DNA from: Mesorhizobium sp.
GTDB lineage: Bacteria > Pseudomonadota > Alphaproteobacteria > Rhizobiales > Rhizobiaceae
Direction of reading: 5' to 3'
DNA: 64,000 nucleotides
NCBI GenBank assembly: GCA_051954615.1
Contig: JBQCHN010000096.1
Coordinates: forward strand, 17,030-81,029
Numbering within the stretch: position 1 is the first letter of the stretch; the number at the start of each line of letters is the position of its first letter. The position numbers were made by a program, and so were the translations under genes. The notes below the pieces were generated by a model. The model was not told where the DNA came from. It saw only the letters and a list, made by a program, of their open reading frames with translations, and ran no database searches. Shown here in pieces: positions 3,300 through 21,475 of this stretch.

Positions 3300-3376
3300 A
3301 GATTAGCACCAATTCGCAGCTACCCAAAGGATTCGTAGCGCGCACTTTCGCTGTGCGTGACTTTTCGACGACTCAT

Positions 3377-3439
3377 TGTTGTGTCGTTTGGGATTCTGGT
3401 CGCTGCTGGATAAGGTCAATCTGCCGCTTGGATTATATG
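3377..3439 (+). repeat. candidate right-end transposase (TnsB) binding-site array
   Basis: Three similar sites: tgttgtgtCGTTtgGGATT (3377-3395), gtCGCTgctGGATAagg (3398-3415) and gcCGCTtGGATTat (3422-3439). They lie between the outside gene and the tnsA ATG at 3488. Confidence 0.35.
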
Positions 3440-3487
3440 AGGATTCCCTCAGGCGGCCAGTCTTGGGCTGCCGGGCGGCGTGCCGAT

Positions 3488-4429
3488 ATGAAGCTGTGCA
3501 TGAGTGAAAAAGCGCGGCCTGCACTAATAAATCCAATGAGGCAGCAAATGTATTCTGTGAGTTTAGAAGGTAATGGCGGACAATTTGAGAGAGATGAACC
3601 GTCTGCGCTTATTTCGATTGGAACGAGATCCGAGACTCCGGCCGCGGTCATCGTCTGGTCGGAAGATGGCGGCCCCTTGCGTCGCATTGTCAATGGACGT
3701 GCGCGCAAACCCACGGGAGTAGAGCCCTGTATGAAAGCTGGGGGCAGGGGAATGCCTTGGGAATCCGAAAAGGCTGAATTCCCGGCGCTATTGCTGGCCG
3801 AGGTGGGATCTCCGGTAATCGATCTACTCGCCCAGCCTCATCGATTGGAAATGTCAGTTGTTGGTCGGCGGCAGCGCATGGTCTATTTCCCAGATCTATT
3901 ACTAACCGTCGAGGAAGGCTTTCTGCATTTGCTGACGAAGGGTGTGCCCTTCGGCCGCGCCGTCGTTGAATGGAGACCTGATCCCCGCCGCTGTCCGCAT
4001 CCCAGCAAACTTGTCGTGGAAGTAAAGGACGACGCCGACGGCAGGATGAATGACCCAATCTATAGGGAGAAGCTACGCCTCGCCCGCGAGGTCTACGCTA
4101 TAGCTGGCTATAGCTTCATTCAGATAGTCCGTTCTGTCGACATCGACTGCGTTGACAGGCGAATTATCAACGACGTTCTGTTGGATAAGCGTACGGTCAT
4201 CACTGCAAGCGAAGTTGGGCGGGCGGTTCGTTACCTGCGTTCTCAAGGCGGCCGAGGAACATTGGGTGGCCTAATCGACGTGCTTGGTGGTGGAACGTTG
4301 GCGAGGGCTGTGGCGAAAGCCCTGCATGTGAGGCGCATTTTATCAATCGATCTCACAGGTCCTCTCCAGCACTCAAGTTGGGTGTGGCTCATTCGGCCCT
4401 ATGGGTTGGAGGGATGCTATGCGAACTAA
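3488..4429 (+). CDS. tnsA: TnsA-like transposition endonuclease
   Basis: The motif set WESEKAEFPALLLAEVGSPV..LAQPHRLE..YFPDLLL..VVEVKDD matches the TnsA restriction-endonuclease-fold N-domain. The track ORF starts at 3353, but ATG 3488 sits downstream of the putative end sites. Confidence 0.85.
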   Translation: MKLCMSEKARPALINPMRQQMYSVSLEGNGGQFERDEPSALISIGTRSETPAAVIVWSEDGGPLRRIVNGRARKPTGVEPCMKAGGRGMPWESEKAEFPALLLAEVGSPVIDLLAQPHRLEMSVVGRRQRMVYFPDLLLTVEEGFLHLLTKGVPFGRAVVEWRPDPRRCPHPSKLVVEVKDDADGRMNDPIYREKLRLAREVYAIAGYSFIQIVRSVDIDCVDRRIINDVLLDKRTVITASEVGRAVRYLRSQGGRGTLGGLIDVLGGGTLARAVAKALHVRRILSIDLTGPLQHSSWVWLIRPYGLEGCYAN

Positions 4430-6689
4430 GATCGATGCGAAGATAGGGGAGACATACGTCTTCGTCCATGATGAGCCGAACCGATTGTATTGGCTGAAAG
4501 CTGTTACACCGAAAGGCAAATTTGTATTCTTTGATGAAGGTGGACATAGGAAGACCGTTGATCCCGTCGCATTCGAGCGAATGCGCGGCGATGGCCATGC
4601 CCGGCGTGTCCACCGCACGGGGATCACCGAAAGGGGTTTGCTTCCTCGGCACATCAATCCAAGCGTATTTATGGATCCCGCAGAAGACGCCAAATCACAG
4701 GGCGAAATCAACCGACGCAGAAAAGATGCGCGGACCCTCGATGAAGCCAGGACGCTCTATTTTTACACCAAACTGCTTGCTGAAAGCCCGGGTGTAACCT
4801 TCCACGTACCTGCCTTGCAGAGATTTATCGACGATAACTGCGCAGATGCTGAGGCAGAAGGACTGTATTGGAAACCCTCCCCCAGTGCGTTGAAGCGAGT
4901 TATCGATAAACACGGAGGTAAAGCAGAAGGCATTACGTTTGCTGCGATCTATGACCAGCGGAGGAAATGGTCACCAAGACAATGCTGGGATTCGCCGATC
5001 GTGAAAATGCGCAACAAAGTCGTGAAGTTCTATTGGTCGGATCGAGAACCGCCCTGCACCCTCACGGAAGCGCACGCATTTTTCTTCGCCACGATGATCA
5101 GGCTCAACAGGCGGCGTATCCGAGCAGGAATGGAGCCGTATAAAGTTCCGGTCCCTCAGACAGTTACCAACTGGATCGCGAAAGCGAATTCTAAGGCGAA
5201 TTTTGCTAGGCGGCATGGCCCCGATGAAGCAAGGCGCAAGATGGGCGCACGCGGACGCTCTACGGAGGTAAGCAGAGCGCTTGAGGTCGTTTTGATGGAC
5301 AATACTCAGGTGGATGTGTGGGCTGTCGTGCGTTCACCTGACGGGCAGATTATCGACCGCGTCAGACCGTGGCTGACTCTTGCCGTTGACGTCTATTCTC
5401 GGATGATTGTCGGCGTGCATCTTTCACTTGAGCCGGCGTCGCTGTCATCGGCTCTGGAATGTCTGAAACAGGTGGTGCGCCGTAAGGAACAGTTGATCAA
5501 GCGCTTTCCTGAATGTCCGGAAGCGGCAGACTGCTGGGGTCGAGTAGGCACCCTTATTGTAGATAACGGGTTAGATTTTGCGGCGCTGAGTTTCAGGGTT
5601 GCATGCGAATATGCCGGCATATCGCTTCGTTTCGCACCGGTGCGCACCCCCGAGTACAAGGGGATCGTCGAAAGGACATTTGGCACTCTTAACACCAGCC
5701 TCTGGCACCGACTTCCTGGGGGCATAGCTGAGACACCACAGGAGAGATCAAGGCTGCGCAAGGATCCTCGAGACCATGCTCATTTCACAGTGGAGGAACT
5801 CGAGCATCGCATGTGGGGCACCATAGTCCCGATACTCGGAATGAGTCCGCACACCCAGACCGGAGTTGCTCCCGCTAAACGCTTCTTCGAGAGTATTCGT
5901 GCCCACGGTCGGCCGACAGTGGACGATATTAGTTCTTTCGATGCAATTCTAGGGCAAACGAAGCGGTGCCTCCTCACCGCTGAAGGTATTCGATTCGACA
6001 ACCACAGATTCCACGATCCCGTCCTAACTAGCGAGTTGCTTGAGGACATGCTGTCGGATGCCAAAGAACGAGGACAGAGGAAGGTCGGTTCTTCCGCCAC
6101 CGTGTGGGTCTGGGCTCTAGCAACGCGGGAGGATTGCAGCCAGGCGATCGTGTATAATACTAAGAGGAAGGAGGCCGTGAGGCTTCCAAACTGGGACCCG
6201 GACATTCGGCCCTTAACTTCGTACAAGGAGGCATCGCTCCAAAGAGCACACAAGGATGCCGCGAACGAAGCCTATTTCTCCAGTGACGATCGGTGGCTCG
6301 CCCGAGACAGGGAGAGACGATCCCGTGAGGTTCCCAAGGCGAGAAAGCTACCTCGGAAGCCAAGAGAATTCTCCGAGATTGTACCTGCTGGCGGATTGCA
6401 GTTGATAGATGGAGCCGTAATCGAGGAGCGCTCGGTCGCACCGTCTGTCTCGGGGAGTCGCCCTGTCGATGTTCCGGGACGCATGCCCTTACACGAGCGG
6501 GTCGATGATCTCATTCCTCCGAAGGACCAACCAAGAGGGCGGGCGTCTTCCCGTAAGAGGAAGGCCGTCCGTGCCGCACCTAGAGGAAATGATGCGCTGC
6601 CGTTAGATAATATAGCTCCTGTACGCCCCTCTCAGTTCCGCATAGATGACCCAACCGCTTTTATGGCAAGTCTCGAGAGTGGAAAATGA
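4419..6689 (+). CDS. tnsB: TnsB-like DDE (retroviral-integrase-fold) transposase
   Basis: DDE triad context: LMDNTQVDVW, LIVDNGLDFAA, KGIVERTFGTLN. ATG 4419 is preceded by GGAGGG. The gene overlaps the tnsA stop (4429). Confidence 0.9.
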   Translation: MRTKIDAKIGETYVFVHDEPNRLYWLKAVTPKGKFVFFDEGGHRKTVDPVAFERMRGDGHARRVHRTGITERGLLPRHINPSVFMDPAEDAKSQGEINRRRKDARTLDEARTLYFYTKLLAESPGVTFHVPALQRFIDDNCADAEAEGLYWKPSPSALKRVIDKHGGKAEGITFAAIYDQRRKWSPRQCWDSPIVKMRNKVVKFYWSDREPPCTLTEAHAFFFATMIRLNRRRIRAGMEPYKVPVPQTVTNWIAKANSKANFARRHGPDEARRKMGARGRSTEVSRALEVVLMDNTQVDVWAVVRSPDGQIIDRVRPWLTLAVDVYSRMIVGVHLSLEPASLSSALECLKQVVRRKEQLIKRFPECPEAADCWGRVGTLIVDNGLDFAALSFRVACEYAGISLRFAPVRTPEYKGIVERTFGTLNTSLWHRLPGGIAETPQERSRLRKDPRDHAHFTVEELEHRMWGTIVPILGMSPHTQTGVAPAKRFFESIRAHGRPTVDDISSFDAILGQTKRCLLTAEGIRFDNHRFHDPVLTSELLEDMLSDAKERGQRKVGSSATVWVWALATREDCSQAIVYNTKRKEAVRLPNWDPDIRPLTSYKEASLQRAHKDAANEAYFSSDDRWLARDRERRSREVPKARKLPRKPREFSEIVPAGGLQLIDGAVIEERSVAPSVSGSRPVDVPGRMPLHERVDDLIPPKDQPRGRASSRKRKAVRAAPRGNDALPLDNIAPVRPSQFRIDDPTAFMASLESGK

Positions 6690-7708
6690 TTTCCATCTTC
6701 AAGCCGCCAACCGACGGTCAGATACTTTCTGCCTTCGACGAGATGTTGATCTGCCACAAGAGAGCGCAACAGGCACAGTCAATATTTGACTCCCTGAGGG
6801 AGGCCAAACGCTTATCGCCAAACACGCCTAAGAATTGGGTCGCGCTCTTCGCTCCAAGCTTTAGCGGAAAAACCCGGGCCGTCATGCTCTACATGGAACG
6901 CGTGATAGATGACGCGATCGCATCGGGTCGCTTCCCGCCGGAAATGACAAGAAATGAAATCGGAAAGGCTCAGACCAAAGTCATCTACCTCTCCATTCCG
7001 TCATCGAACGTTACTCAGAAGACGGTAATCACGATGTTGCTCGCGCGGTTGGGCGATCCGCTACCGGACAAGGGGAATACCGGCCAGCAGTTACAGCGCC
7101 TCTATGAGTTGATGCATAAGCTCGGCGTGGAGTTGGTGATCCTGGACGAGATGCAGCACTTGAGCGCAGCGATGCGCGAAGGGGCGCGGTCGCGCTCGAA
7201 GGATGGTCAGTACGCTCCGATTCCATATTTGATCAAGACGCTCCTCGATAACGGCCATGTTCCGATAGTTTGCATCGGGATAACTGAAGGAAGGAGTCAC
7301 TTGATGAGCAACAATGAACTCAGAAATAGATGCTTTAAGGAGTTAGATTTCTTACCAATTAAACCAGATAGCATTGATATGCTGGAAGTACTCGCGAAAT
7401 ATTTTGGAATGCTTGCGAATAAAATTGTTGAATATGGGCTTTTCCCGGATGTTCCTGATTTTATTTCTGGCGAGATCCCGGATTGTTTTGTGGATGTGTC
7501 GGGCGGCAAGATCGGTGAAGCCACTATGTTGGCACGAAGCGCCTGCTGTTTCGCAGCTCATCGAGGAGCGCGTTGCGTGGAATATGAGGACCTCGAAGCC
7601 GCTACGGACGAGGCGATTGCTGCAGGTAAGGTCAAGATCAATTTTTTCCGTCTGCGCAGGGAGAAGAAGGAGAGGGAAAGGGAACGGGAACTGGAAATGG
7701 CGGGATGA
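6686..7708 (+). CDS. tnsC: TnsC/TniB-like AAA+ transposition ATPase
   Basis: Walker A APSFSGKTRAV and Walker B LVILDEMQHL. There is a 4-nt overlap with tnsB and with tniQ. Confidence 0.88.
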   Translation: MISIFKPPTDGQILSAFDEMLICHKRAQQAQSIFDSLREAKRLSPNTPKNWVALFAPSFSGKTRAVMLYMERVIDDAIASGRFPPEMTRNEIGKAQTKVIYLSIPSSNVTQKTVITMLLARLGDPLPDKGNTGQQLQRLYELMHKLGVELVILDEMQHLSAAMREGARSRSKDGQYAPIPYLIKTLLDNGHVPIVCIGITEGRSHLMSNNELRNRCFKELDFLPIKPDSIDMLEVLAKYFGMLANKIVEYGLFPDVPDFISGEIPDCFVDVSGGKIGEATMLARSACCFAAHRGARCVEYEDLEAATDEAIAAGKVKINFFRLRREKKERERERELEMAG

Positions 7709-9714
7709 GTGGCTTGGCGGGAGAGTCTCAACGTGCAACTCGTGCACCCGGCATGGTTGAGGCCGTCTGGGACCGTGGACATCTCGCGATCCCGATTGCA
7801 CCCCTTCCGGGCGAAGGGCTTGCTGAGATGATTGTCCGCGCAACGGCCGAGAACAGCTACGGATGTTGCGCGACGATCACGAACGCTCTCGGGATCCGTG
7901 GAAAGCTCCCTGTTGGGTTGGCGACAAGATTTCAAGCGCGAGAAAAGGCGTTGGCTTCCTTGCTCGGTATTCCAGGCGAAGGCGAAAGCTTGAGGAGCCT
8001 ATTGTACCTACCGATGGAAGCGCGCACGGGTTGGCAATCGTTTTTTGGTACTTCCATACGGCAGATTTACCGTGAGGTTGCCGGGCGGCGCGTTTCGCCG
8101 CGAGCGTTGGCAATCTCCCCACATCTTAGGGCGATCTGGTCTGTTCGAATTTTCCCTTTCGATCCTCTAACCAAGGAAATGTTGATCAATCGATGCCCAG
8201 TTTGCTCCAAGTCCTTCGGATGGGCGAGGACGCGCGGGACTGTCTATTGTGATCAATGTCTGTCCATAGACGACCATGGTTGCGAACGAGGCATAGTCGA
8301 TCTGCGCGATTTTCCACAGCCTTTGGTAGATGAAAAGCATTGGGCTAAATTGGATATTCTGACGGGTCTTATTGATCCAGATCAGAGCATTCGCGCGGAT
8401 TTCAATCCACAGCTTCCTGAGGTTTTCAGGGTCTTTGATCGCGGCGAAATTTTTGAATTTGCGGTAGCGTTGGGATCCGCATTCGAGGGTCCGAGCAAAT
8501 CGCAATCATGTTATCTTAGCCGTGCTGCCAATAAGGAACAATGTTTGCGCTTTACGCCGGCCGCTCTGGCTAAGGTCGCAACAGCGCTCTTGGATTGGCC
8601 TGCAACATTCAACTCTGCAGTGGAAGCAACTCGAAATGACGCTTGGAACGATGCCGGCAACCTCCGGTGGCGAACGGTCTTTGGCTCATTCGCGCAACTA
8701 GCTATAGATCGCTTCATCCATCCTGGCCTGCAGAAATTGGTTCGAGGGGAGTTGGAACGGCACCTCGTGGGTTATCATAGTGAGATGCCTAGAATGAAGG
8801 GCGGTGTGAAGCGCCAAGATATGAACGCAGTTCCTATCTGCGTCGCCAGTGAAATCCTCAAGACGTCAAGGACGAGGATTAGCAGGCTGGTAAAACGCAA
8901 GAGGGTTTCCGCCATCACAACTGGCACGTCATCGAAGGCGTCTGTCCTCGTGTCGGTGCCACGGATCGCCGCTATCATCGCTGCAGATGCCGAACTCGTT
9001 TCAGTGGAAAGTGCAGCTTCCCGCTTGGGGCTTCCTGGGCTTGCTATACTTTCCCTAGTGGAGGACGGATTGTTGAGAAAGGGAGTCAACCATGAGGGCC
9101 AACACGTAGCTAAAACCGTAGCACGATGTTCGATAGACGAGTTGATTCGTACATTAGATGAGCGGCTGTGCCATTCTGCACCGCCGCCGAGAGTTCTCTC
9201 TCTTTTTTCTGCAGCCATCCTACTGGGTTCTCCCCGATCGAATCCTTGGCCTGACCTTCTGCAGTTGGTAATCCGGAAAAAGGTGACCGCATGGAAACGA
9301 AGGCTGCAGGGACCGGTGTCATCCTGCATCGCTGTCAATTTGAACGAAATAGAAGACCGGATAAGTTTGAAGAGACCATGGGCTTGTAAGGGCGACGCGA
9401 CTATATCTCACCGGGATGCCATCAGATTGCTGGGAACTAACGGAATGGTCCTGTATGCATTGTTTGACGCTGGTATACTCCCGCGCAAACTTCTGCTGTC
9501 CCATCTTCAGGCGTTTTCCAGTTCAAACGTCCTTACTGGGGAATTGCTGGATCAACTCACTGCCCGCGATATCTCGACGGTTCCCTACGCATTGATTCAA
9601 CATCTCCAAAAGCGAGGATTGCACGCCACCTCGGTGAAACGCGGCCTCGTGAGGCGCTGGATTTGGCCGCGTGCGAAAGCGGAAGCTGCCATAGGACATA
9701 TTTTAGTTGCCTAG
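7705..9714 (+). CDS. tniQ: TniQ/TnsD-family target-selection protein (669 aa)
   Basis: N-terminal TniQ pattern IPIAPLPGEGLAEMIVRATAEN and zinc module CPVCSKSFGW..YCDQC. Fourth gene of the overlapping tns operon. Confidence 0.85.
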   Translation: MSGLAGESQRATRAPGMVEAVWDRGHLAIPIAPLPGEGLAEMIVRATAENSYGCCATITNALGIRGKLPVGLATRFQAREKALASLLGIPGEGESLRSLLYLPMEARTGWQSFFGTSIRQIYREVAGRRVSPRALAISPHLRAIWSVRIFPFDPLTKEMLINRCPVCSKSFGWARTRGTVYCDQCLSIDDHGCERGIVDLRDFPQPLVDEKHWAKLDILTGLIDPDQSIRADFNPQLPEVFRVFDRGEIFEFAVALGSAFEGPSKSQSCYLSRAANKEQCLRFTPAALAKVATALLDWPATFNSAVEATRNDAWNDAGNLRWRTVFGSFAQLAIDRFIHPGLQKLVRGELERHLVGYHSEMPRMKGGVKRQDMNAVPICVASEILKTSRTRISRLVKRKRVSAITTGTSSKASVLVSVPRIAAIIAADAELVSVESAASRLGLPGLAILSLVEDGLLRKGVNHEGQHVAKTVARCSIDELIRTLDERLCHSAPPPRVLSLFSAAILLGSPRSNPWPDLLQLVIRKKVTAWKRRLQGPVSSCIAVNLNEIEDRISLKRPWACKGDATISHRDAIRLLGTNGMVLYALFDAGILPRKLLLSHLQAFSSSNVLTGELLDQLTARDISTVPYALIQHLQKRGLHATSVKRGLVRRWIWPRAKAEAAIGHILVA

Positions 9715-9730
9715 ATTGACAGGGAAGTCC
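9703..9730. repeat. repeat family copy A (TTAGTTGCCTAGATTGACAGGGAAGTCC), contains the tniQ stop codon
   Basis: Matches 19965-19992 at 26 of 28 positions in direct orientation. It fills the 17-nt gap between the convergent tniQ and the 841-aa gene. Confidence 0.8.
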
Positions 9731-9731: not shown

Positions 9732-12257
9732 CTAATTCGTTAGACGACTCTCGTCGGCATCCTCCGGATCACTAATCAAGTCGAGTGTCCAGGTGTTTTG
9801 GACCGTGTCATAACACGCTTCAAGTGACTGCAGTTGTGACGAAATCTGGTTTCTCTCTAAAGGCCGCCCGAGTTTATCTTCCGCCGCAGTCAAAATTTCA
9901 GTGAGCGTCAAAGGCTTTGAACTCTCTCCCATTATTGCGGCGACAACATCATGCAAACTCTCTCTTCGCGGTGATCCCCATTCTGTCAAATAAAGATAAC
10001 GGCCAGTGCTGACTCGCATACGGTCGTCGGAGGTTGAGAGGCTGAAGAAGGCGGTGACGGTCAATCCTGATGCTTTCAAAGCAGCCGATCTTTCCATCTC
10101 CGAATAATGCAAGCCTGCGCCACGAGTTCGAAGAAGGTGCACTACTCCGTCCAGCAATCGACGTTGGTCCGCTCTCTTTATCGGCACGTCTCGATCATTT
10201 AGCCCCCACACGCCCGGAGCAGTTCTGATCACCGGATCGATAGAGAAAATCTGGAAGAGCTTGTCTACACCGCGCGATGCCATCACGCGCTCCCGAAGCT
10301 CTTTGGTTGTAAGCGGCCCCCCAGCATTCTCTAGAGCCGCAATGGTCGCTTGTCGGATGTCGATCCGAAACTTATCATCCTGTCCATCCTTGATGTCCAG
10401 CGTCCACACGAGACGCCCGAGTCGCTCTACACCCCCAATGCGTTTTAGCGCGATATCCAGCAAGTACTTGTCGAACCTTTCTGCGTCTGGGATGTCACGC
10501 TCGGAGAGTTCAGCAACCAACTCCGACGTGTGCCATTGGCGGCCTCGTGGGCCCTCCGCGATAATCTGCTCTGCTTCCTCTGCAATCCTTAGCATCGTGT
10601 CCGCATCAACGACGACGTGCTTGTCGAGGCCATATGTGCCACGCCCGAACAGAAGGCCCACATTGGCCGCAGCGTTGTGAGCACGTCTGACGTCAAGATT
10701 GTGAGAAAAGCTCTGCGCAACTAGCTCGGGTAATTCTGAGTAGTGGAGCGGTCTATCTGAGGATGAGAGGGTCGCGTATACGAGATTTTCGGCAGATTTC
10801 CCGAAACTTGTGAGAATGCGGCCCTCAACGGTTTCGGTGAATTGAGCGTCGCGGGTGGCGGTTTCCCACAACAACTCGCGAAACTCGCGGCATTGATCTG
10901 GCAACAGCGGTAAGATCACGGATCTGCAATGCTCGTGCGACCAATTGTGGTCTGCGCCGTCATCAAGCAAGCGTCGAGAGGCAGAGACGGCGTCTTCCCA
11001 CTCACTTTGCCGCATTGCACCCAAGTATTGGACGCCATCAATTTCGATAACTCGTATTGGCGTAGATGCAACGTGTTCCAAAAGATACGCGAGGGTTTCT
11101 AAGTGATCGGCAATTCCAGAGAACCAAGCATCTGCAGCCTCCAGACCATGTAAGGGGATGGGCATAATCCGCTCTCTGATGATCTGGTCCACTCGGTGTG
11201 CCAACTCGTCATCCCAAGTCTCTAACTTGATGATGCGAGCAACCATCTTCGATTCAACTTGGCGAATGCGTTCACGAGTGACGCCAAAGCGTTCCCCGAG
11301 TTGTTGGAGGGTTTCAGCGGTGCCCCCATATCCCATACGACGGATAACAATCTCTCTTTGCCTTTCGGAGAGTGTAGCCAAGGACGCATCCAGCGATTCT
11401 AACAACGTCGACCATCGACGAACTTCATTTTTGTGAGAGTCGACGTCGCCCGATGGGCTACCGTAACTGTCTTCTGGGCCCCGATCCAACGCGGACATCA
11501 GAGAAGAGAACAGGTCCCAAGCAGATTTGCGCCCGAAATTCTGCATGTGCAGAAGGTCGTCAAGCGATAGTGACGCAAGATCGCCAATAGTCTTAATATT
11601 TTTCACGCTGAAGACGTTCGCCACTCGCACCGTTACATCGATCGACTCGACGGTTCGTTCGCTTAGCCAAGGCGGTGCGGCGCGGGCCACGCTGCATGGG
11701 TCTTTAGCTTCTCCAGTTAACATCTGCCCGAACCTGAAGAGCCCGAGATCGTGCCGAAGAGTGCGGGGTAACTTATGTTCAAAGTCCAGATAACTGGCCT
11801 CGTTGAATATGCCAAACTGGCGAAGCTGCTCCTCTCGATCCGCAAACTTCACAAGGAAACGGCGCACCCACCCGTCCGGGGACCATTCTTGGGCTTGCTG
11901 AACAGGAGTTGACGCGGGGCGAATCTTGTCCTCTAGTTCGTAGCCCCAGCCGCGCAAAGCTAGGTAGATTGGGATTCCTGCAACTTTCCCGAGAGACGTA
12001 GAGGAAGAGACAAACCCGGATGGCAGTCCATACTTTGCTGATTCAGTCAGCAGCAGATGGCCAGCGTGTTCACTGACAATCTCCTCAAAGTCGCGAGATG
12101 GAGGCCGGGAGAACCCAACGTGGAGCACGCCGACGCTAGCATCCGGCGATGGACGAGATTTCCAACTTTCGAGCAACTCTTCCAATTCACGATGGACGGT
12201 AACGGTCCATTCGGCATCATGCCGAAGCATCAAAAATGCCCGCAAAGGAATAGTCAT
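9732..12257 (-). CDS. 841-aa multi-domain DNA-binding protein: RNAP alpha-CTD-like HhH + sigma-70 region 4 HTH + several HARE/winged-helix modules
   Basis: Alpha-CTD-like segment: VRVANVFSVKNIKTIGDLASLSLDDLLHMQNFGRKSAWDL. Sigma r4-like segment: LSERQREIVIRRMGYGGTAETLQQLGERFGVTRERIRQVESKM. Repeated PL(T/H)..EL....wHTH-like segments occupy the C-terminal half. The start overlaps the upstream stop (TAATG). Confidence 0.8.
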   Translation of the reverse strand: MTIPLRAFLMLRHDAEWTVTVHRELEELLESWKSRPSPDASVGVLHVGFSRPPSRDFEEIVSEHAGHLLLTESAKYGLPSGFVSSSTSLGKVAGIPIYLALRGWGYELEDKIRPASTPVQQAQEWSPDGWVRRFLVKFADREEQLRQFGIFNEASYLDFEHKLPRTLRHDLGLFRFGQMLTGEAKDPCSVARAAPPWLSERTVESIDVTVRVANVFSVKNIKTIGDLASLSLDDLLHMQNFGRKSAWDLFSSLMSALDRGPEDSYGSPSGDVDSHKNEVRRWSTLLESLDASLATLSERQREIVIRRMGYGGTAETLQQLGERFGVTRERIRQVESKMVARIIKLETWDDELAHRVDQIIRERIMPIPLHGLEAADAWFSGIADHLETLAYLLEHVASTPIRVIEIDGVQYLGAMRQSEWEDAVSASRRLLDDGADHNWSHEHCRSVILPLLPDQCREFRELLWETATRDAQFTETVEGRILTSFGKSAENLVYATLSSSDRPLHYSELPELVAQSFSHNLDVRRAHNAAANVGLLFGRGTYGLDKHVVVDADTMLRIAEEAEQIIAEGPRGRQWHTSELVAELSERDIPDAERFDKYLLDIALKRIGGVERLGRLVWTLDIKDGQDDKFRIDIRQATIAALENAGGPLTTKELRERVMASRGVDKLFQIFSIDPVIRTAPGVWGLNDRDVPIKRADQRRLLDGVVHLLRTRGAGLHYSEMERSAALKASGLTVTAFFSLSTSDDRMRVSTGRYLYLTEWGSPRRESLHDVVAAIMGESSKPLTLTEILTAAEDKLGRPLERNQISSQLQSLEACYDTVQNTWTLDLISDPEDADESRLTN

Positions 12258-12637
12258 TACTCGCTAGCTTTCGCTGCGACCTGATCAAATATGGCCACGA
12301 AATCTAGATTCCCGTTTCGGGCTTGAGCCGAAAGCTCATTGACACCCCACTCGGCCAGCCGTTCAATCAGCCTGTACGGAGTTATTTCGGCGACCTCTTC
12401 CGGCATTAGCATTTCAACGGAACGACGGAATGACTGGTCGGGGTCCAACGAGCCTATATTCAGAAATGGCGAACGGTCCGATAGCTCAGGCGGGATGACG
12501 CCTTGTGCCAGTGCGAGAGAAACCGCAAATCGAAAGCCGTCCATCTTTTCTGCGAAAATGCCGCTCTCTTTGAGGTCGTCGAGCTTGTCGTTTCCAGCCT
12601 TCGACAACCCAATCGTCACGATTTCCTGTTGGCTCAT
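12257..12637 (-). CDS. DndE-like small DNA-binding protein (126 aa)
   Basis: Size, position directly after a DndD-like gene, and the pattern LSKAGNDKLDDLKESGI...FRFAVSLALAQG...LDFVAIF resemble DndE. ATGA overlap with the upstream gene. Confidence 0.5.
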   Translation of the reverse strand: MSQQEIVTIGLSKAGNDKLDDLKESGIFAEKMDGFRFAVSLALAQGVIPPELSDRSPFLNIGSLDPDQSFRRSVEMLMPEEVAEITPYRLIERLAEWGVNELSAQARNGNLDFVAIFDQVAAKASE

Positions 12638-14619
12638 AGCGCCACCCGCTCGATACGCGACTGGGTCGGAGAAACCTCTACAATCTGGTAAGTGCCGCCA
12701 ATTCTCGATCTGATGCTGCTCAAATCTGTATCGGGGCGGATTTCACCGCTATGGACAAGAAGCACAAACTGACTGGTGACCTCTGGCAGATATCCGAGGA
12801 TATTATCGCGATGGTTGAGGTCTAGTCTGCCAAACGGTGTATCCATTATAACTGGTCCTACCGCTCGGCCTGTACGATTCAAACCATCGATTAGGGACAG
12901 GGCCACAACTTGTTCAGCACCAGCACTTCTGATCGTTACTTTTCGCCCCATGTTATCGATGATGCTTAGTCCGTAGTTGGAATTGATCTCCAGGCCGCGA
13001 TAGCTTTTCTGCGTGGTCATCCTCCGAAAGGCATCATTTGCCAAATCTTCCACGCGCGATCGCAACCTATCTCGGAGTTTCTCGATGCTGGCTGCAAACA
13101 CGCGCTCTAGTTGCTGCGTGATATTGACTTTGGACGTGCTGCGGCGTGAGCGGGAGGCGGCCAGGCCTGCAATTGCCTTTTGAGCAATCGCCAGGTCCTG
13201 ACGCACTTTATCTATATCTTTCTTTACACGCTCGATATCGCTCTGAAGACGACCTTCCTCTTTCACAGCATCGTCTTTGAGCACCCGTTTTCGAGCCAAC
13301 TCGGCAGTGTCTTGGCCGCTGATCTCATCTTGTATCGATTCTATGTCGTTTTCAGTCCGCTGCAATTCGACCAACGATCGCCGCATGTCGCGATCAATCT
13401 CGCGTAGGCGATCTGCGGCGTTAACGCCTCGTATTTTACTAATTGATGCGAGTTGTCCCGCGATAGACTCAAGCTCGTTGGAAGTATCTTTAGCGCGAGA
13501 CAGTTCAGCCTCCAAAGAGCCAAGTTTGGTTCCGAACTCGTGATTGTGACCTGAGTCAACCTTTTGACCGCATGTTGGGCAAACACCTTTTGCAACTAAA
13601 TCTTGTAGTTGACGCACTGTACCCTCAAGCTTCGCTTGATGCTTGACCTCTTGCGTAAGTTCTCGGCGACGGTATTCGAGAGCCGATCGCTTTGTACTGA
13701 GCTTCGCATCCAATAGGTCTTGCCATGCTTGTCCCAAAAGTGTTCTTCTGTCGATCTCTTTTTGCCTGATAGTGATATCAAGATTTGATTTCACTAATTT
13801 CAAGCCATCAAGTTTCGCCTTTTGAGTAATTAGGGTATTCGCCGCCTCTAAATCATCTTCCAACTGCGTGCGCGACTTCCGTGTTTGCTCTAATTTTAGC
13901 TGGAGCGTATCCCGGTCACGTTCCAGAGCTTCTTGACGTGTCATCAAATCTCTTTGGTTTGCAGCTTGCCGCTCCAAGCCATTAATCTGCTGAAGTTCTA
14001 CTGCTTGTTGTTTCTGCGCTCCTTTGAGGATCGAGCCGAGTTCAGCCCGCCCCTTGGTTAGGGCCGGAACACCCAAGACATCCTCAATCGCCTCCTTGAT
14101 CTGTCGCCCTTGCTCGCTTCCTTCGATCAGGAGGCTCTCATATTCTTGCAAAAGTTCGCCGTCGAAAAGGAAGAAACGAGAGATTTGCTCCGGGGCGATC
14201 TGATCGATCTCTTGCTTAATTTGATCTCCGCTAACAGCAGAGCCATCCTTTGTCAGGTGCTCCGATACGGTGAAGTCTTCGGGGCGTGCTGGGATTGCGA
14301 CATTCGCTCGACGATCAGCGATTCGTCGAAGGTCATACATTGAGCCATTTGCTTCAAATTGAACGAAGACTTGAACGCGCCAATCTCCTGCCGCCGCAGC
14401 ATCTTTGTTCACGATATCTTGCATCGGGATTGGCCGAGAATGGCGGCCGATGGCTTTGCCGTAGAAGCCCCATCTCAAGGCGTTCAAGAAACTGGTTTTA
14501 CCCCGCATGTTGTCGCCGAACACGATCATGACATTTCGTTGCTCGTCCGTGGGGAATTCGAGCGACATGTCGCCGTGGTAGGGCATGAAGTTTCGTGCTG
14601 TGATCCGGTGTAATTTCAT
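12634..14619 (-). CDS. DndD-like SMC/Rad50-type ATPase (661 aa)
   Basis: Walker A GDNMRGKTSFLNALRWGFYG, FFLFDGELL, long coiled-coil middle with CPTCGQ, and C-terminal VIMDTPFGRLD. Confidence 0.8.
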   Translation of the reverse strand: MKLHRITARNFMPYHGDMSLEFPTDEQRNVMIVFGDNMRGKTSFLNALRWGFYGKAIGRHSRPIPMQDIVNKDAAAAGDWRVQVFVQFEANGSMYDLRRIADRRANVAIPARPEDFTVSEHLTKDGSAVSGDQIKQEIDQIAPEQISRFFLFDGELLQEYESLLIEGSEQGRQIKEAIEDVLGVPALTKGRAELGSILKGAQKQQAVELQQINGLERQAANQRDLMTRQEALERDRDTLQLKLEQTRKSRTQLEDDLEAANTLITQKAKLDGLKLVKSNLDITIRQKEIDRRTLLGQAWQDLLDAKLSTKRSALEYRRRELTQEVKHQAKLEGTVRQLQDLVAKGVCPTCGQKVDSGHNHEFGTKLGSLEAELSRAKDTSNELESIAGQLASISKIRGVNAADRLREIDRDMRRSLVELQRTENDIESIQDEISGQDTAELARKRVLKDDAVKEEGRLQSDIERVKKDIDKVRQDLAIAQKAIAGLAASRSRRSTSKVNITQQLERVFAASIEKLRDRLRSRVEDLANDAFRRMTTQKSYRGLEINSNYGLSIIDNMGRKVTIRSAGAEQVVALSLIDGLNRTGRAVGPVIMDTPFGRLDLNHRDNILGYLPEVTSQFVLLVHSGEIRPDTDLSSIRSRIGGTYQIVEVSPTQSRIERVAL

Positions 14620-14623: not shown

Positions 14624-14827
14624 CTAGCTCTGCAGGTGGTCGAGCATGTTTTTGACGTGTACGTCTATGAGCCTCTCCATCTCTATCTGAGACGCGGAGC
14701 GATCGTCGCTAAACTGAAAGCGCTTTTGGACCTGATAGCATTGCTTCAACAGGAGATCATCGACCGTCGGTTCCGCCTCTTGGCGAACCGAAAGTAGAGT
14801 CTCTAGGGTCAGGTCTTCGTCTGACAT
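14624..14827 (-). CDS. 67-aa acidic hypothetical protein
   Basis: Wedged between the helicase (1-nt TAATG overlap) and the DndD-like gene (4-nt gap). I count 14 D/E against 7 K/R. Confidence 0.55.
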   Translation of the reverse strand: MSDEDLTLETLLSVRQEAEPTVDDLLLKQCYQVQKRFQFSDDRSASQIEMERLIDVHVKNMLDHLQS

Positions 14828-16920
14828 TATTCGTCCCCCTCTATTCCGGTATCGGTTAGCGTGTCAGGATCAATACCAAGCTCGATGGCAATAGCCCGCA
14901 ACTCCGCACCACCAGCGCGATTTAACGCATGAGATGAAAACTCGATCGAGCGAACAAGTTCTGCCTTAAGAAGACCCATCTGATCTGACTCGTCTTCGGC
15001 ATTTACGGGTACAACGATCGCGTCGTGAATCACTGCCAAGTCTTTCTCGGGCGATTTTCGAAGTACGCGACCTCTACGTTGTATGAACTGCCTTGGGTTT
15101 TGGGATGAGGCCAGGATGAGCGCATGCGAGATCGAGGGAATATCGACACCTTCGTCAAGGCAGCGAATTGACACTAAAACGCCTCCAAAAGTGCGGAACC
15201 ATGTCAGAGTTGCATTGCGATCGCCACTCATCGAAGAGTGATACTCTACGGCATCAATACCAGCGTCTTTCAGACTTCCGAGGACGACTCCCAATTGATC
15301 CGCGTCTTCACAATAGACCAGCCAACTCTGACCTTTCTCGAAATGATTTTTTAGAACGCTCACCGCCAGTGCCACCTTTGCAGTGGCCTTCTTGGCAACA
15401 CGTGATCGTTGGATCAATAACATCTTGGCTCGTTCCGAAACGGACTTTTTTCCGTTCGAATCAGTGGGTTGTCTCGCAATTTCTTGACGTATCGAATGGG
15501 TGATCTTGCTCCATTCTTCTGCTTCTGTTGCCGAAAGGTGCACCGGGTGAGGGAAATATTCATATGGGACCAAGCGCCCGGCATTAATCGCATCATTTAT
15601 GGTGATGGGTGGTGGAACGACTTCTCCGAAATACTGGAACATCCTTGCGGTCCCGTCTTGGTCACCAAATCGCTGGGGAGTTGCGCTCAGTCCAAGACGA
15701 GGGCCTGATGCGAGATTGTAGACATTCGAATTTCGACGGCTCCCTGATTGGTGCACCTCATCTGCTACAAGCATCAGGTGATCGCCGCCCCTTACCAAAT
15801 TCAGAAAATCCAAACTCGATGCGGTTTGCATGGTCGACAGCACGATCCTAGCACCGAGTGAGGGATCGGGGTCCGTCATGCTTTGAAGGCGTCCAGCTTT
15901 TTTCCACCCGTCGTTTCCGCCTCCAGCTAGCATCAGAGCCGCAGACGGAACTTCTTCGCGAAGCTCTTTGGCCCACTGCTCCAAAAGCAATTGACTTGGC
16001 ACCAACACCAACGACGGTAGGCCCAGACTCAAGTGCTTATTGAGAGCGGTAATAGCCGTAAAAGTCTTGCCACTCCCTGTCGCATGCTCAAAAATGCCAC
16101 GGCGGCCACTAGCTTCCCAACGACTGATTGCATCCATCTGATGGGGTAGTGGGGTGCGCTTGTCGCGAACTGGCTGCAATTGCAGTTCCGTCACGTCGTC
16201 CAACCCTTTCAGAGCGTGTTTCTGCAGACGTTCGATAGCAACGCTGGGAAATGGAAACACTTCCACGTCCCGGTCGGTTTGTGACCATAGTGAATCGAAA
16301 TGATTTTCATGGCGATTAACACGCTCAGCTTCCAATCCACCGCGCCAGCTGCAAAAAACTTCTATTGATTCAAAGTTACCGCTTGGGTCCCATGCGCTCC
16401 ACGTCTCGTTAGCCGATCCTTTGAACGAAACTCTGTTGCCCAAACCGTCCGAGAAAATGCCCAATTTTTCGTGATATAGCCCCTTTCGATCTGATCGAAA
16501 TGCGAGCTTTATCTCCAACGCATTTACGGCGACCAGGGTCGCTAGAATGCGTGCGTGTTGTTGAGTCGTTGGTTCCGATAAGAGCTGGTCGATTTGCTCA
16601 ACCAATCGTTGAGCGACGTGGCTGCTTCGTTTCGCGTAACCGAGCACGATCGAGTCGATGTCTGATGGATCAAGCTCAGGCGAACAAATCAGACATATTT
16701 TCCCTCCGCGACGTGCGAAGTCTACAACACTGCCCCCCGTGACGACGAAAACCGTCGAACGGAAATATCCTGCCGCGCGCTTGTAGGTATTTGAGTGCTG
16801 GAGACAGGGTCTGTAGAAGCTCGTTGCGGGCGTCTCTTTGATTGAGCGGTACTCTGTACGGAGATTGAGCACGGATAGATCGCCGAGAAATTCGTTACGG
16901 ATCGTGCTGCTCCCGGTCAT
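14827..16920 (-). CDS. PLD-family (single HKD) nuclease fused to SF2 DEAD/DEAH-type helicase; restriction-enzyme-like
   Basis: HKD motif YHEKLGIFSD..FKGSANETW. Helicase motifs HATGSGKTFTAI, LVADEVHQSG, LSATP and QRRGRVLR. Confidence 0.85.
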   Translation of the reverse strand: MTGSSTIRNEFLGDLSVLNLRTEYRSIKETPATSFYRPCLQHSNTYKRAAGYFRSTVFVVTGGSVVDFARRGGKICLICSPELDPSDIDSIVLGYAKRSSHVAQRLVEQIDQLLSEPTTQQHARILATLVAVNALEIKLAFRSDRKGLYHEKLGIFSDGLGNRVSFKGSANETWSAWDPSGNFESIEVFCSWRGGLEAERVNRHENHFDSLWSQTDRDVEVFPFPSVAIERLQKHALKGLDDVTELQLQPVRDKRTPLPHQMDAISRWEASGRRGIFEHATGSGKTFTAITALNKHLSLGLPSLVLVPSQLLLEQWAKELREEVPSAALMLAGGGNDGWKKAGRLQSMTDPDPSLGARIVLSTMQTASSLDFLNLVRGGDHLMLVADEVHQSGSRRNSNVYNLASGPRLGLSATPQRFGDQDGTARMFQYFGEVVPPPITINDAINAGRLVPYEYFPHPVHLSATEAEEWSKITHSIRQEIARQPTDSNGKKSVSERAKMLLIQRSRVAKKATAKVALAVSVLKNHFEKGQSWLVYCEDADQLGVVLGSLKDAGIDAVEYHSSMSGDRNATLTWFRTFGGVLVSIRCLDEGVDIPSISHALILASSQNPRQFIQRRGRVLRKSPEKDLAVIHDAIVVPVNAEDESDQMGLLKAELVRSIEFSSHALNRAGGAELRAIAIELGIDPDTLTDTGIEGDE

Positions 16921-16942: not shown

Positions 16943-18076
16943 CTACTCTGCGAGGGACCCGGTAAATTCAGAGAACCGACCTTGTGAACCCCTTACGTAG
17001 TCAGGATCGGCTTCAACTCCGATCCATTTGCGTCCCAACGCTTGCGCGACGGCCCCGGTGGTGTTCGATCCTGCGAAGGGATCGAGAACCAAGTCATTGG
17101 GCGATGTCAGAAACTGCACAAAGAACGCTGAGAGCATTGCTTGCATGCGAGCGGGATGGGCGGGAAGATTATGCGTTTTGCAATAGTCGCGATAGTTTGC
17201 GTCCCACTTGGTGCCTGAGAATTTCAGGAGCGCTTCGGGCGCATTGGTTTCATCGGCAAGTTCAAGCACATTCGCTGAAATCGCTCCACCATGATCCCTT
17301 AGAAAGCCTGTTTCAGAAATCACGTGCCCAGATGGTCGAGCACCAGGATTGTATTTGCCTGTTTTGAGCAGGCGCTTCATGTCTTTGCTGTAAGGCTTAA
17401 GGACGTTGCGGTTGTCGGCCTTAGGGTCCTTGGACTTCGACATCCACCAGACGTGTGTGAATGAGTCCTTTAACCTGACCCGCTTGACGTTCACCCATGC
17501 TGCGGGGCTAGGTAGCCGGGCTGGATTGTGGCAGATCACATGCTGACAGAGATACAGTCCGGCAGATTTTTTGATTTCAAGTAGAGCTTCGAGTGGAAGC
17601 GTAGACATCACTGGAGCCCCTTCTTCCCAAGCGTTCCCGATCTCGATAACAATCGAGCCGTCGTCCGTCAGAAGTTCGGCTAGTGGTTTTGCGAGGGCGC
17701 TCAGCCACTCTATGTACGCCTGCCCAGTTTCATTTCCATAGCGTTTCTTTCGAACGAGCGGAAAGGGCGGCGATGTTACTATCAGATTAACCTTGCCCTT
17801 CAGGTCCAGTAAGGCAGCGGAATGAAGCGCGTGCTCAATTCTGCCATGAAGCATGGTCCCCGAACCTGTTTGGTAGGCCTTGACTACGGGACCGACCACG
17901 TCCTCCGACGGACCCGTCTCACTGACGGGCGATATCAGATGCAAATGCGCATTGACGGATATCTGCTTGCCTTTCGCCGTGTCAGCGATGGCTTTGCCCT
18001 CGGCTTCTCGACCGTTTTTCTCGACGCAACGAGCTTTCCTCACCACGCGCCCATTTTTTTGCGCATGCTCATTCAA
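16943..18076 (-). CDS. beta-class N4-cytosine/N6-adenine DNA methyltransferase
   Basis: Motif IV IVTSPPFPL comes before motif I VLDPFAGSNTTGAVA. SPPF favours m4C, but this is not decisive. Confidence 0.85.
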   Translation of the reverse strand: MNEHAQKNGRVVRKARCVEKNGREAEGKAIADTAKGKQISVNAHLHLISPVSETGPSEDVVGPVVKAYQTGSGTMLHGRIEHALHSAALLDLKGKVNLIVTSPPFPLVRKKRYGNETGQAYIEWLSALAKPLAELLTDDGSIVIEIGNAWEEGAPVMSTLPLEALLEIKKSAGLYLCQHVICHNPARLPSPAAWVNVKRVRLKDSFTHVWWMSKSKDPKADNRNVLKPYSKDMKRLLKTGKYNPGARPSGHVISETGFLRDHGGAISANVLELADETNAPEALLKFSGTKWDANYRDYCKTHNLPAHPARMQAMLSAFFVQFLTSPNDLVLDPFAGSNTTGAVAQALGRKWIGVEADPDYVRGSQGRFSEFTGSLAE

Positions 18077-18293: not shown

Positions 18294-18419
18294 GATTATT
18301 GCGACAAGGCGGAAATCCGACGACGAGGGGCAATCAGGTATGTTTCTCGGATATTGGGTCAGTGAATTCGATGCTACCCGATCGTCTCGGGCGGATGAAA
18401 TTTTTGGTTGGAGATCGCC

Positions 18420-19193
18420 ATGGTGTCTGAAACTCGTTCACCTCGGCTTGCGGTTCTGATCGATGCAGACAACGCCTCGGCAAAGATCGCCGACGGCCTG
18501 TTCGAAGAGATCGCGAAGATCGGCGAGGCCAGTGTCCGGCGGATCTATGGCGACTTTTCGAGTACGCGCTCAAAGGCTTGGGCCGATATCCTATCGAAAC
18601 ATGCGATCATACCCCAACAGCAGTTCGCCTATACGACTGGCAAGAACGCCTCCGATATAACATTGGTGATCGATGCGATGGACCTGCTCCATAGCGGGCG
18701 GTTTGACGGTTTCTGTCTCGTCTCATCTGACAGCGACTTCACGCGGCTTGCTGCCCGAATCCGTGAGCAGGGCGTTGATGTCTTCGGTTTCGGGGAGCAG
18801 AAAACGCCTGAAAGTTTCCGTCAGGCCTGTCGCCGATTTATCTATACCGAGAATCTGCTGCCGTCTGCCCCTGCAAACGAACCAGAGGCCGCACCGAGCA
18901 CGAAGTCCCTGCAGCCACCGTCGGCGGCCGTGCCGATCATCCGGAAGGTCATCGCGCAGATGGAGAGCGAGGACGGTTGGGTTCCGCTCGGTGCGGTCGG
19001 CAATCAGCTCGCCAATCTGGCTTCCGATTTTGATCCCAGGACATTTGGCTTCCGCAAACTGAGTGATCTCGTGCGGAAAACGAATGCATTCGACATCGAG
19101 CATCCCGAAGGTGGCAGCATGCGGATTCGTATCAAGCCCGCCGGCAACCGACCCTCGACGACTAAATCAAAGGGACCGAGATCCAAGGGCTGA
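18420..19193 (+). CDS. NYN (LabA-like) ribonuclease-fold protein with C-terminal OST-HTH/LOTUS domain
   Basis: LAVLIDADNAS and FCLVSSDSDFTRLAARIREQG mark the NYN domain. The C-terminal segment GWVPLGAVGNQLA..FGFRKLSDLV is LOTUS-like. Confidence 0.8.
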   Translation: MVSETRSPRLAVLIDADNASAKIADGLFEEIAKIGEASVRRIYGDFSSTRSKAWADILSKHAIIPQQQFAYTTGKNASDITLVIDAMDLLHSGRFDGFCLVSSDSDFTRLAARIREQGVDVFGFGEQKTPESFRQACRRFIYTENLLPSAPANEPEAAPSTKSLQPPSAAVPIIRKVIAQMESEDGWVPLGAVGNQLANLASDFDPRTFGFRKLSDLVRKTNAFDIEHPEGGSMRIRIKPAGNRPSTTKSKGPRSKG

Positions 19194-19964: not shown

Positions 19965-20068
19965 TTAGTTGTCTAGATTGACAGGGAATTCCTGCCCGAC
20001 CGCTTTGGGGCGGCGGAGTTGGGAAAGCGGCCATTCGGCTGGCCGTCGTATTTCGACGGCAACGCGCC
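19965..20068. repeat. repeat family copy B (28-nt motif plus 78-nt extension)
   Basis: 19965-19992 matches 9703-9730 at 26/28. 19991-20068 matches 24368-24445 at 60/78 ungapped, by my own column count. Confidence 0.75.
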
Positions 20069-21060: not shown

Positions 21061-21410
21061 TCGCTTGCCTTCGTACCTCTCTGCTTGGCCAGGAGGCCCA
21101 CGAAATCCGTTGCGAGCTTCAGGTCTTCCTCGGTGAGCCTGCTCAGGTCGCGGTGAAGGCGGCCGACTGTTTCTGCTGAGGCCTGAGGCGTATCGGATCG
21201 ACCAAGCAAATAGTCGGTGGTCACATTGAGGGCCGAAGCCAAGGCTTTGAGATTGTCGAACGACGGTTTCCGCGGGCCCGACTCGAAATGAGACACCGAA
21301 GCAGCTGGAAGCCCGGCTTTGGCAGCAAGTTCGGCCTGATTCAGGCCACGGAGTTTGCGGGCGTCTTTGAGACGTTCTTTAAAAATATCAGTGGCTTGGG
21401 TTTCTGGCAT
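21057..21410 (-). CDS. XRE-family HTH repressor, CapH-like
   Basis: LRGLNQAELAAKAGLPAASVSHFESG. ATG 21410 is preceded by GGAAG, while the track start at 21506 adds an implausible His-rich leader. Confidence 0.8.
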   Translation of the reverse strand: MPETQATDIFKERLKDARKLRGLNQAELAAKAGLPAASVSHFESGPRKPSFDNLKALASALNVTTDYLLGRSDTPQASAETVGRLHRDLSRLTEEDLKLATDFVGLLAKQRGTKASE

Positions 21411-21431
21411 GGTGCTTCCGATATGGATAAC

Positions 21432-21475
21432 TTGACGTTTCCGCCATTCCGAGTCAACATCATGGTGATCATGGT
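21432..21475. promoter_or_regulatory. candidate operator in capH-like / Ubl-operon divergent promoter
   Basis: TTGAC (21432-21436) N16 GTCAA (21453-21457), followed by the tandem ATCATGGT GATCATGGT (21459-21475). Confidence 0.35.

Follow-up and report, generated by a model that had tools for sequence, protein, structure and literature searches.

The window analysed here, a stretch of 64,000 nucleotides (nt) from a contig of Mesorhizobium sp., carries on its minus strand a six-gene operon that consists, in this order, of genes for an N4-type DNA methyltransferase, PbeA, PbeB, PbeC, PbeD and, in the last position, a protein of 841 amino acids (aa) that we call X841. Judging from the sequences of its products, the operon is a methylase-linked version of the PbeABCD, or CxC ABC (ATP-binding cassette) ATPase-DndE, system, with X841 as a sixth gene. 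We tentatively suggest, at somewhat less than an even chance, that X841 is a dedicated DNA-targeting or licensing subunit of this methylation-coupled Pbe restriction system. The genes, whose starts and stops overlap or lie no more than 22 nt apart, are as follows (coordinates refer to the window).

16943..18076, minus strand: beta-class DNA methyltransferase with an SPPF motif, N4-cytosine type (Pfam N6_N4_Mtase, E=3.1e-34; PADLOC MTase_II, E=1.3e-78)
14827..16920, minus strand: PbeA, an HKD (phospholipase D, PLD) nuclease fused to a superfamily 2 (SF2) helicase (PADLOC PbeA, E=1e-211; Pfam ResIII, Helicase_C and PLDc_2)
14624..14827, minus strand: PbeB, a small protein of 67 aa (Pfam Sp-DndD, E=6.1e-5; 23.5 bits, cut-off 27.2)
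12634..14619, minus strand: PbeC, a CxC-type (CPTC) coiled-coil ABC ATPase, DndD-like (PADLOC PbeC, E=5.9e-290)
12257..12637, minus strand: gene in the PbeD position, 126 aa, its stop overlapping the X841 start by 1 nt; assigned by position following PMC10853773
9732..12257, minus strand: X841, with an N-terminal domain, an alpha C-terminal domain (alpha-CTD), a sigma region 4 and a winged-helix array

PbeA carries an HxK(x)4D...GSxN motif, and the CPTC hook motif of PbeC lies in the middle of its coiled coil; PbeC also matches the DndD model TIGR03185 (E=2.5e-39) with 135.3 bits, below the cut-off of 245.85 bits. In PbeABCD systems PbeB is a small, fast-evolving protein encoded between PbeA and PbeC, a position occupied by a gene for a protein of 66–71 aa in six of the seven annotated loci. 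PbeD has been reported as a cognate of DndE with two ribbon-helix-helix repeats (PMC10853773); the gene found in this position in the window has no DndE match by Pfam, and a profile of its family retrieved from the Protein Data Bank (PDB) only spurious ankyrin matches and no DndE. The methylase open reading frame (ORF) as listed starts with TTG and encodes 377 aa; homologues have 319–358 aa and profiles align only from about residue 67 onwards, which makes an internal codon downstream of the TTG the probable true start. No dnd modification genes were recognised among the large ORFs scanned between positions 1 and 30 kb of the window.

The PbeABCD system is known to protect a haloarchaeon in a phosphorothioate-dependent manner without visible DNA cleavage (PMC6459918, Xiong 2019), and it was later re-annotated as a CxC ABC ATPase-DndE system (PMC10853773). 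The gene order in the window is the same, with PbeA, PbeB and PbeC recognised by profile and a small protein in the position of PbeD. However, the archaeal system comprises four genes and depends on DndCDEA phosphorothioation, whereas the operon described here is led by a beta-class SPPF methylase and ends with the 841-aa sixth gene. CxC systems linked to a methylase are described as frequently accompanied by an additional gene, which has an ‘MTaX1’ domain and for which a role in telling modified DNA apart has been proposed (PMC10853773, citing Krishnan 2020). The context of that gene is the same as that of X841 (CxC-DndE, a cytosine-N4-type methylase and the extra gene), and X841 may correspond to it; the description mentions neither an alpha-CTD nor a sigma region 4 in that gene (PMC10853773). 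The Pbe/CxC system and its methylase-linked subtype with an extra gene are thus already in print (PMC10853773), and it is the architecture of X841 that appears to be new.

Polymerase-like and winged-helix modules of X841

The gene is an ATG-initiated ORF, and the plus-strand frame over the same interval is ridden with stops. An AlphaFold2 (AF2) model of the whole protein, built on 40 homologues, has a mean predicted local distance difference test (pLDDT) score of 86.6 and displays a helical region plus hairpin at aa 347–470, followed by five further winged-helix units. The domain map reads from the N-terminus as follows.

11922..12257, minus strand: family-specific alpha/beta domain (aa 1–112) with the motifs LHVGFxRPP and GWGY; pLDDT above 90, no Pfam match
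11661..11873, minus strand: helical subdomain (aa 129–199), ending in a conserved DPCxxARAAPPWL motif
11472..11660, minus strand: helix-hairpin-helix domain similar to the alpha-CTD of RNA polymerase (RNAP), aa 200–262; PF03118
11406..11471, minus strand: disordered linker between alpha-CTD and sigma region 4 (aa 263–284); pLDDT below 50 at aa 264–280
11220..11405, minus strand: sigma-70 region 4 (4.1–4.2) helix-turn-helix (aa 285–346); PF04545
10848..11219, minus strand: conserved helical region and divergent winged helix U0 (aa 347–470); from the AF2 model and profile-profile comparison
10614..10847, minus strand: HARE-type winged helix U1 (DRPLHYSEL...GRGTYGL), aa 471–548; hhalign probability 97% against U5 and 90% against U3
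10392..10613, minus strand: divergent winged helix U2 (aa 549–622); from secondary structure of the model, with weak profile similarity to U0b
10182..10379, minus strand: HARE-HTH unit U3 (GGPLTTKEL...GVWGL), aa 627–692; PF05066
9972..10181, minus strand: HARE-type unit U4 (GLHYSEM...GRYLYL), aa 693–762; hhalign probability 87% against U3
9774..9962, minus strand: HARE-type unit U5 (SKPLTLTEIL...NTWTL), aa 766–828; from profile-profile comparison

The two polymerase-like domains are firmly identified. The Pfam family RNA_pol_A_CTD (PF03118) matches aa 200–249 (E=2.9e-11; 43.4 bits, cut-off 23.8) and was found in 40 of 40 members of the X841 family, and Sigma70_r4 (PF04545) matches aa 293–339 (E=1.1e-10; 41.2 bits against a cut-off of 24.1). 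Comparison with solved structures agrees with both assignments: the alpha-CTD segment, modelled with a pLDDT above 90, matches RpoA chains in the PDB and, by Foldseek, 9dvt_A with a template-modelling (TM) score of 0.78 normalised to the target and 32% identity; the sigma segment matches RpoS, SigA and RpoD chains (best E=1.5e-10) and, by Foldseek, sigma region 4 with a root-mean-square deviation of 1.2 Å over 58 residues and 45% identity. The similarity is confined to these modules. NCBIfam RpoA models cover only aa 199–254, the N-terminal assembly domain being unmatched, and NCBIfam sigma models match only aa 256–344, both far below their cut-offs; neither sigma region 2 or 3 nor any catalytic family was detected in Pfam and NCBIfam profile scans. 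Since it lacks the alpha N-terminal domain and sigma regions 1–3, X841 is not a polymerase subunit, nor can it be a sigma factor; automatic names given to its family include ‘RNA polymerase principal sigma factor HrdA’ and ‘sigma factor-like HTH DNA-binding protein’ (e.g. WP_329601443.1 and WP_165451229.1).

These results bear out most of what the initial annotation had said of the protein. The alpha-CTD-like segment it recognised (VRVANVF...NFGRKSAWDL, aa 210–249) and its region-4 segment (LSERQREIVIRRMGY...VTRERIRQVESKM, aa 294–338) survive the profile test set beforehand, both families exceeding their curated cut-offs, and the absence of sigma region 2 and of a catalytic motif holds in the profile scans. 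The distance between the two segments, given there as about 60 residues, is in fact 45. The annotation had further pointed to at least three winged helix-turn-helix units of the P-L-(T/H)..EL type (e.g. GGPLTTKELRERV...GVWGL at aa 645–686 and SKPLTLTEILTAAE at aa 780–793), a parsing that proved correct and conservative, as four HARE-type units plus two divergent winged helices are found; further segments of this type occur near aa 500 and aa 714. Finally, the N-terminal stretch of about 190 aa that it had left without assignment indeed has no match in Pfam, PDB or BFVD, and yet it is a folded and conserved domain.

Residues by which alpha-CTD and sigma region 4 contact DNA recur in X841. In RpoA of E. 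coli, the DNA-binding ‘265 determinant’ of the alpha-CTD is made up of R265, N268, G296, K298 and S299; these align with R211, N214, G242, K244 and S245 of X841. Across the family, R211 and G242 do not vary, and conservation is 90% or higher at N214 and S245. The recognition helix VTRERIRQVE aligns with residues 582–591 of sigma-70, a segment in which R584, E585, R588 and Q589 read the −35 hexamer. Of 72 sequences from the X841 family and its Myxococcota sister family (described below), which share only 24% identity, 71 retain the residues aligned to sigma-70 R562, R584, E585, R586, R588 and Q589. Both segments of X841 match chains of a single PDB entry, 3N97, which we take to be an alpha-CTD plus sigma region 4 assembled on UP/−35 DNA. 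X841 has both folds and both sets of contact residues of that assembly and, unlike RNAP, fuses the two modules in one chain via a linker of about 14–23 aa. With a linker whose median length in the family is 14 aa (pairwise identity 13%), the two modules must lie next to each other. This conservation is as expected for a reader of UP-element-like or −35-like DNA and supports, at the sequence level, such a predicted activity. Note that a sigma-70-family component is also present in another defence system, the anti-phage system MZA, whose protein MzaA matches X841 locally over region 4; the match to its model (NF041931) covers 58 residues only, with 46.9 bits against a cut-off of 800, and the rest of X841 and its operon partners are unrelated to MZA.

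Instead of reading DNA, the same folds might dock X841 on RNAP itself, with sigma region 4 placed on the beta-flap tip and the HARE units acting in the manner of the delta subunit, so that the complex would ride on or block the polymerase and bring about transcription-coupled surveillance or a shut-off of phage transcription. There are fold matches to sigma region 4 bound at the beta-flap tip, the HARE-HTH is the fold of the N-terminal domain of RNAP delta (Pfam family description), and PbeABCD stops viruses from replicating although no DNA cleavage is visible (PMC6459918). We nevertheless regard docking as distinctly unlikely, because X841 has no sigma region 2, the main source of affinity for core polymerase, and because the flap-contact positions are less conserved than the DNA-contact ones: at the position aligned to sigma-70 F563, one family has M in 60% of its sequences and the other A in 94%, and the residue aligned to L598 is kept in 40% and 84%, respectively. 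Moreover, the hosts are mostly Alphaproteobacteria, which to our knowledge lack the RNAP delta subunit.

The C-terminal half is built of winged helices. Four units (aa 471–548, 627–692, 693–762 and 766–828) are homologous to one another in profile-profile comparisons with hhalign, the probability being 79–97% in five of the six pairings and 28.5% for aa 693–762 against 766–828; comparisons of the same kind identify aa 401–470 and 549–622 as divergent winged helices. In X841 itself, the HARE-HTH family (PF05066) is matched at aa 636–665 with E=8.6e-4 and 20.1 bits, below the cut-off of 25.9, and 23 of 40 relatives have a match at E≤0.01 (best E=8.6e-10). U5 is the least conserved unit, and a subfamily of proteins of about 750 aa lacks it. 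Of the 50 Foldseek matches listed for X841 in the PDB, the best to tandem winged-helix proteins are the C-terminus of SelB (E=5.6e-4) and UFL1/DDRGK1, and a profile of U3 matched no solved HARE structure in the PDB. Tandem winged helices serving restriction or modification machines are known elsewhere (PMC10853773); none of the three proteins compared is among those 50 matches, and the units of X841 are of the HARE type.

The N-terminal part (aa 1–199) reaches a pLDDT of 89 when modelled alone. Its residues W32, H46, G48, F49, G103, G105 and W197 are invariant and W104 is at least 90% conserved. Pfam gave no match even at E≤10, and Foldseek gave no significant match in PDB (best E=0.064, TM about 0.3) or BFVD; a class III cyclase identity (TM about 0.3) was rejected, as there are no invariant acidic residues in aa 1–112. 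Of the 386 clusters (50% identity) that a profile search of 1.84 billion representative proteins retrieved, 157 have E≤1e-30. Almost every one of the 150 matches listed places the domain at about residues 1–200, and the listed carriers are proteins of about 650–1150 aa (mostly 820–900) or short, apparently truncated fragments. On this basis, the domain is specific to the X841 family. In three relatives (P0113, P0114 and P0119) an extra helix-hairpin-helix or HARE-HTH is inserted between the alpha/beta domain and the helical subdomain; the linker that follows the alpha/beta domain is therefore a hotspot for domain accretion.

Relatives, partners and a portable body

The X841 family comprises at least 132 clusters at 90% identity, nearly all of them with proteins of 740–880 aa bearing both Pfam domains. 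We inspected 33 related loci, eight obtained by protein look-up and 25 from a metagenome scan with an alignment of eight N-terminal sequences. A PbeD homologue lies directly upstream of the X841 homologue in every one of them (8/8 and 25/25, respectively). Among the metagenome loci, PbeC is found upstream in all 24 that could be checked, and an N6_N4 methylase is present in all 12 long ones. The complete six-gene order recurs in five of the eight look-up loci, which belong to Devosia (two contigs), Rhizobium and two metagenome contigs; in another (L088) the methylase gene is convergent and located downstream. The membership of X841 in the operon, which the initial annotation had assumed without naming the system, is thus confirmed, both by the translational coupling of X841 to PbeD in the window and by the constant presence of PbeD upstream, and the search for homologues outside restriction-modification or defence neighbourhoods turned up defence contexts only.

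One look-up locus (L086) is decayed, having lost PbeA, PbeB and the methylase and kept PbeD and a fragment of PbeC. Its X841 relative (positions 10001–13444 of that locus; protein P0010, 1147 aa) has the alpha-CTD/sigma-4 pair triplicated, and this copy may be decaying or repurposed. The PLSDB plasmids contain a single X841 relative, disrupted by an IS3 element. A scan of genome contigs with the sigma motif TRER[IV]RQ[IV]E retrieved ordinary sigma factors and one true relative, in locus L001, and a scan of viral contigs found no X841 relative.

X841 evolves faster than the proteins encoded next to it. In locus L081, for example, it is 53% identical to the copy in the window, as opposed to 74–78% for the methylase, PbeA, PbeC and PbeD. 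The individual domains diverge at similar rates (mean pairwise identity 32–55%), and their divergence correlates with that of PbeA and PbeC (r=0.75–0.93) better than with that of the methylase (r=0.41–0.61), the weakest partner; of all regions, aa 347–470 follow PbeA (r=0.93) and PbeC (r=0.92) most closely. Partial correlations gave no signal as to which domain of X841 contacts which partner. Since co-divergence with PbeA and PbeC exceeds that with the methylase, X841 belongs with the restriction core.

The same comparisons bear on the idea that X841 is a specificity subunit, its winged-helix array reading the site of the linked methylase, methylated versus unmethylated, like HsdS of type I systems or DndG/SspB of phosphorothioate systems. 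A methylase in all complete metagenome Pbe loci of the family would suit this role, as would the proposal that HARE-HTH domains recognise modified DNA (PMC10853773). The linked methylases, however, fall into two classes, with 62–78% and 41–45% identity to the window enzyme, and the identities of the winged-helix units are equal across them; loci L093 and L103, which differ in methylase class, have U1 identities of 46/46 and U3 identities of 56/55. Together with the correlation to the methylase being the weakest of all partners and the existence of a locus without any methylase (L087, see below), this makes a specificity subunit very unlikely in our view; no domain follows the methylase class, and a subunit with methylase-matched specificity is therefore improbable in particular.

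The body of X841, in contrast to its N-terminus, is shared with another family. A Myxococcota sister family of proteins of about 1250–1480 aa (e.g. MDF3069629.1) is collinear with aa 206–825 of X841 (E=8e-32), i.e. over about 620 aa from the alpha-CTD to the last winged helix, and has the same recognition helix. It differs in possessing an N-terminus of its own, of about 420 aa, and a second alpha-CTD, and its neighbours are not Pbe genes. In loci L001 and L114, the sister genes are preceded by genes for a HerA/AAA protein and for a caspase that carries a bacterial death-like domain (caspase-bDLD3); in L115 and L116, an SNF2 helicase gene follows immediately downstream of them, and the same loci contain an Eco57I-like methylase, adjacent in the former and three genes on in the latter. 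The restriction of the N-terminal domain to the X841 family and the collinearity of the remainder with the sister family fit a system-specific N-terminal adaptor joined to a portable alpha-CTD/sigma-4/winged-helix reader. That the body recurs alongside caspase systems and other systems of the helicase/methylase kind points to a defence module of general use, assembled from parts of the polymerase. Our literature searches found no description or test of an architecture that combines a fused alpha-CTD and sigma region 4, their DNA-reading residues intact, with four HARE units and an orphan N-terminus, and that is re-used elsewhere; searches on the Pfam domain pair, on MzaA and on decoy concepts gave nothing relevant.

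Possible roles of X841 in restriction

In the proposed targeting or licensing role, the N-terminal domain (aa 1–199) would tether X841 to the PbeC/PbeD/PbeA machine and the portable body of about 620 aa would bind duplex DNA. Given the short linker between its members and the retention of the UP-element and −35 contact residues, the alpha-CTD/sigma-4 pair probably works as a single, composite reader of promoter-like DNA. The six winged helices, four of them of the HARE type, would add DNA contacts and possibly read the modification state. Once on unmethylated foreign DNA, X841 would position or license the PbeA nuclease-helicase, with the SPPF methylase marking host DNA as self. What the data show is which domains X841 has, that it belongs strictly to the operon and that the residues in question are conserved; the steps of the scheme are inferred. 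If correct, X841 offers a mutable handle on target choice in the methylase-linked subtype, namely the residues R211, R328, E329 and Q333.

Several points weigh against a targeting or licensing subunit. The closest tested system, the archaeal PbeABCD, works without X841 (PMC6459918). The X841 relative in locus L087 (30% identity) has no methylase in its neighbourhood and lies beside a full dnd phosphorothioation cluster. No domain of X841 tracks the class of the linked methylase, so that a reading of the modification state or of the sequence in step with the methylase lacks support, and the tethering role of the N-terminal domain is deduced from gene position alone. Furthermore, faster divergence than that of the partners is a pattern common for proteins that face phage proteins, and conserved DNA-contact residues are equally expected for baits that mimic RNAP.

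These last two points concern the main rival explanation, a decoy or guard in which the alpha-CTD and sigma region 4 serve as baits for phage factors that take over RNAP, since they mimic the two polymerase parts that such factors most often seize or modify. Once a factor is caught, the PbeA nuclease-helicase would be switched on. T4 AsiA, T4 Alt/ModA and gp67 of phage G1 target just these two modules, and the complex of gp67 (ORF67) with sigma domain 4 (entry 4g6d) is among the fold matches of X841. The surfaces copied from RNAP are near-invariant across two families of low overall identity, X841 as a whole diverges faster than its partners, and the same body is found beside the HerA/AAA protein and the caspase with a death-like domain; systems of the HerA/AAA and caspase types sense invader proteins. 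On the other hand, the sigma-4 module is not a recent copy of a host sigma factor, since it best matches, with an identity of about 45%, RpoS and SigA from phyla that are unrelated, and a bait has no need of six winged helices. No relative was found in the scan of viral contigs, and no partner phage factor is known. On balance, we consider a decoy unlikely.

A broader proposition, which we rate as somewhat unlikely, is that the fused alpha-CTD and sigma region 4 constitute a working mimic of the upstream promoter-recognition face of RNAP, employed in at least two defence families. Such a mimic might either guide restriction to strong UP/−35 promoters on unmodified invading DNA, or act as bait through which phage proteins that take over or modify the polymerase of the host are detected. 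Were it true that X841 reads promoters or baits phage take-over factors, immunity would be linked directly to the transcription apparatus.

X841 might also be conceived as a transcription regulator of the operon or of the island in which it lies, as it contains many helix-turn-helix domains and defence islands often encode regulators, a CapH/CapP pair being present in this very island. Its size of 841 aa, its last position in a translationally coupled operon (with the sister homologues in L115 and L116 directly upstream of partner genes) and the conserved, system-specific N-terminal domain are all at odds with such a function. No conserved operator was found, the sole repeated motif being local to the window. 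All in all, a regulator seems highly improbable.

The island around the operon

A Tn7-like transposition module on the plus strand (3353–9714) converges on the Pbe operon. It encodes a TnsA-like protein of 358 aa, a TnsB-like rve transposase of 762 aa, a TniB/TnsC-like ATPase of 340 aa and, in the TniQ/TnsD position, a protein of 669 aa without a family match. The Pbe operon may be cargo of a Tn7-like element. A 28-bp direct repeat (TTAGTTGYCTAGATTGACAGGGAA...) occurs at 9703–9730 and 19965–19992 with 93% identity, none being expected by chance, and brackets a 10.3-kb segment with the six-gene operon and an NYN/OST-HTH gene. The repeat contains a perfect TTGACA; it was rejected as a conserved binding site, being absent from all 116 fetched loci, and may instead mark a cassette boundary. 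A 36-nt direct repeat is found further out, at 2304–2339 and 28075–28110 (83% identical, 25.8 kb apart), and the G+C content is lower at about 2–18 kb (51–55%) than further on (about 60%); this repeat and the G+C dip suggest the limits of a mobile island.

The island contains further genes. Divergent from the methylase gene and inside the segment bracketed by the 28-bp repeat, an NYN nuclease fused to OST-HTH/LOTUS is encoded at 18408–19193 (plus strand); it matches no PADLOC model. A CapH/CapP-like regulator pair follows at 21057–21506 and 20167–21060 (PADLOC capP, E=2.9e-62; capH, E=1e-24), and next to it a JAB plus ThiF/E1 fusion (22492–23874) is flanked by small ORFs. This region (20167–24206) resembles a defence module for ubiquitin-like conjugation, in which no cyclase is evident. 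On the minus strand, the gene at 24870–27587 encodes a UvrD-family helicase of 905 aa, for which weak matches of the GajB-like and NERD+UvrD-like kinds were obtained; it is likely a further defence gene. Finally, a 79-nt direct repeat (77% identical) occupies intergenic positions in the island at 19990–20068 and 24367–24445.

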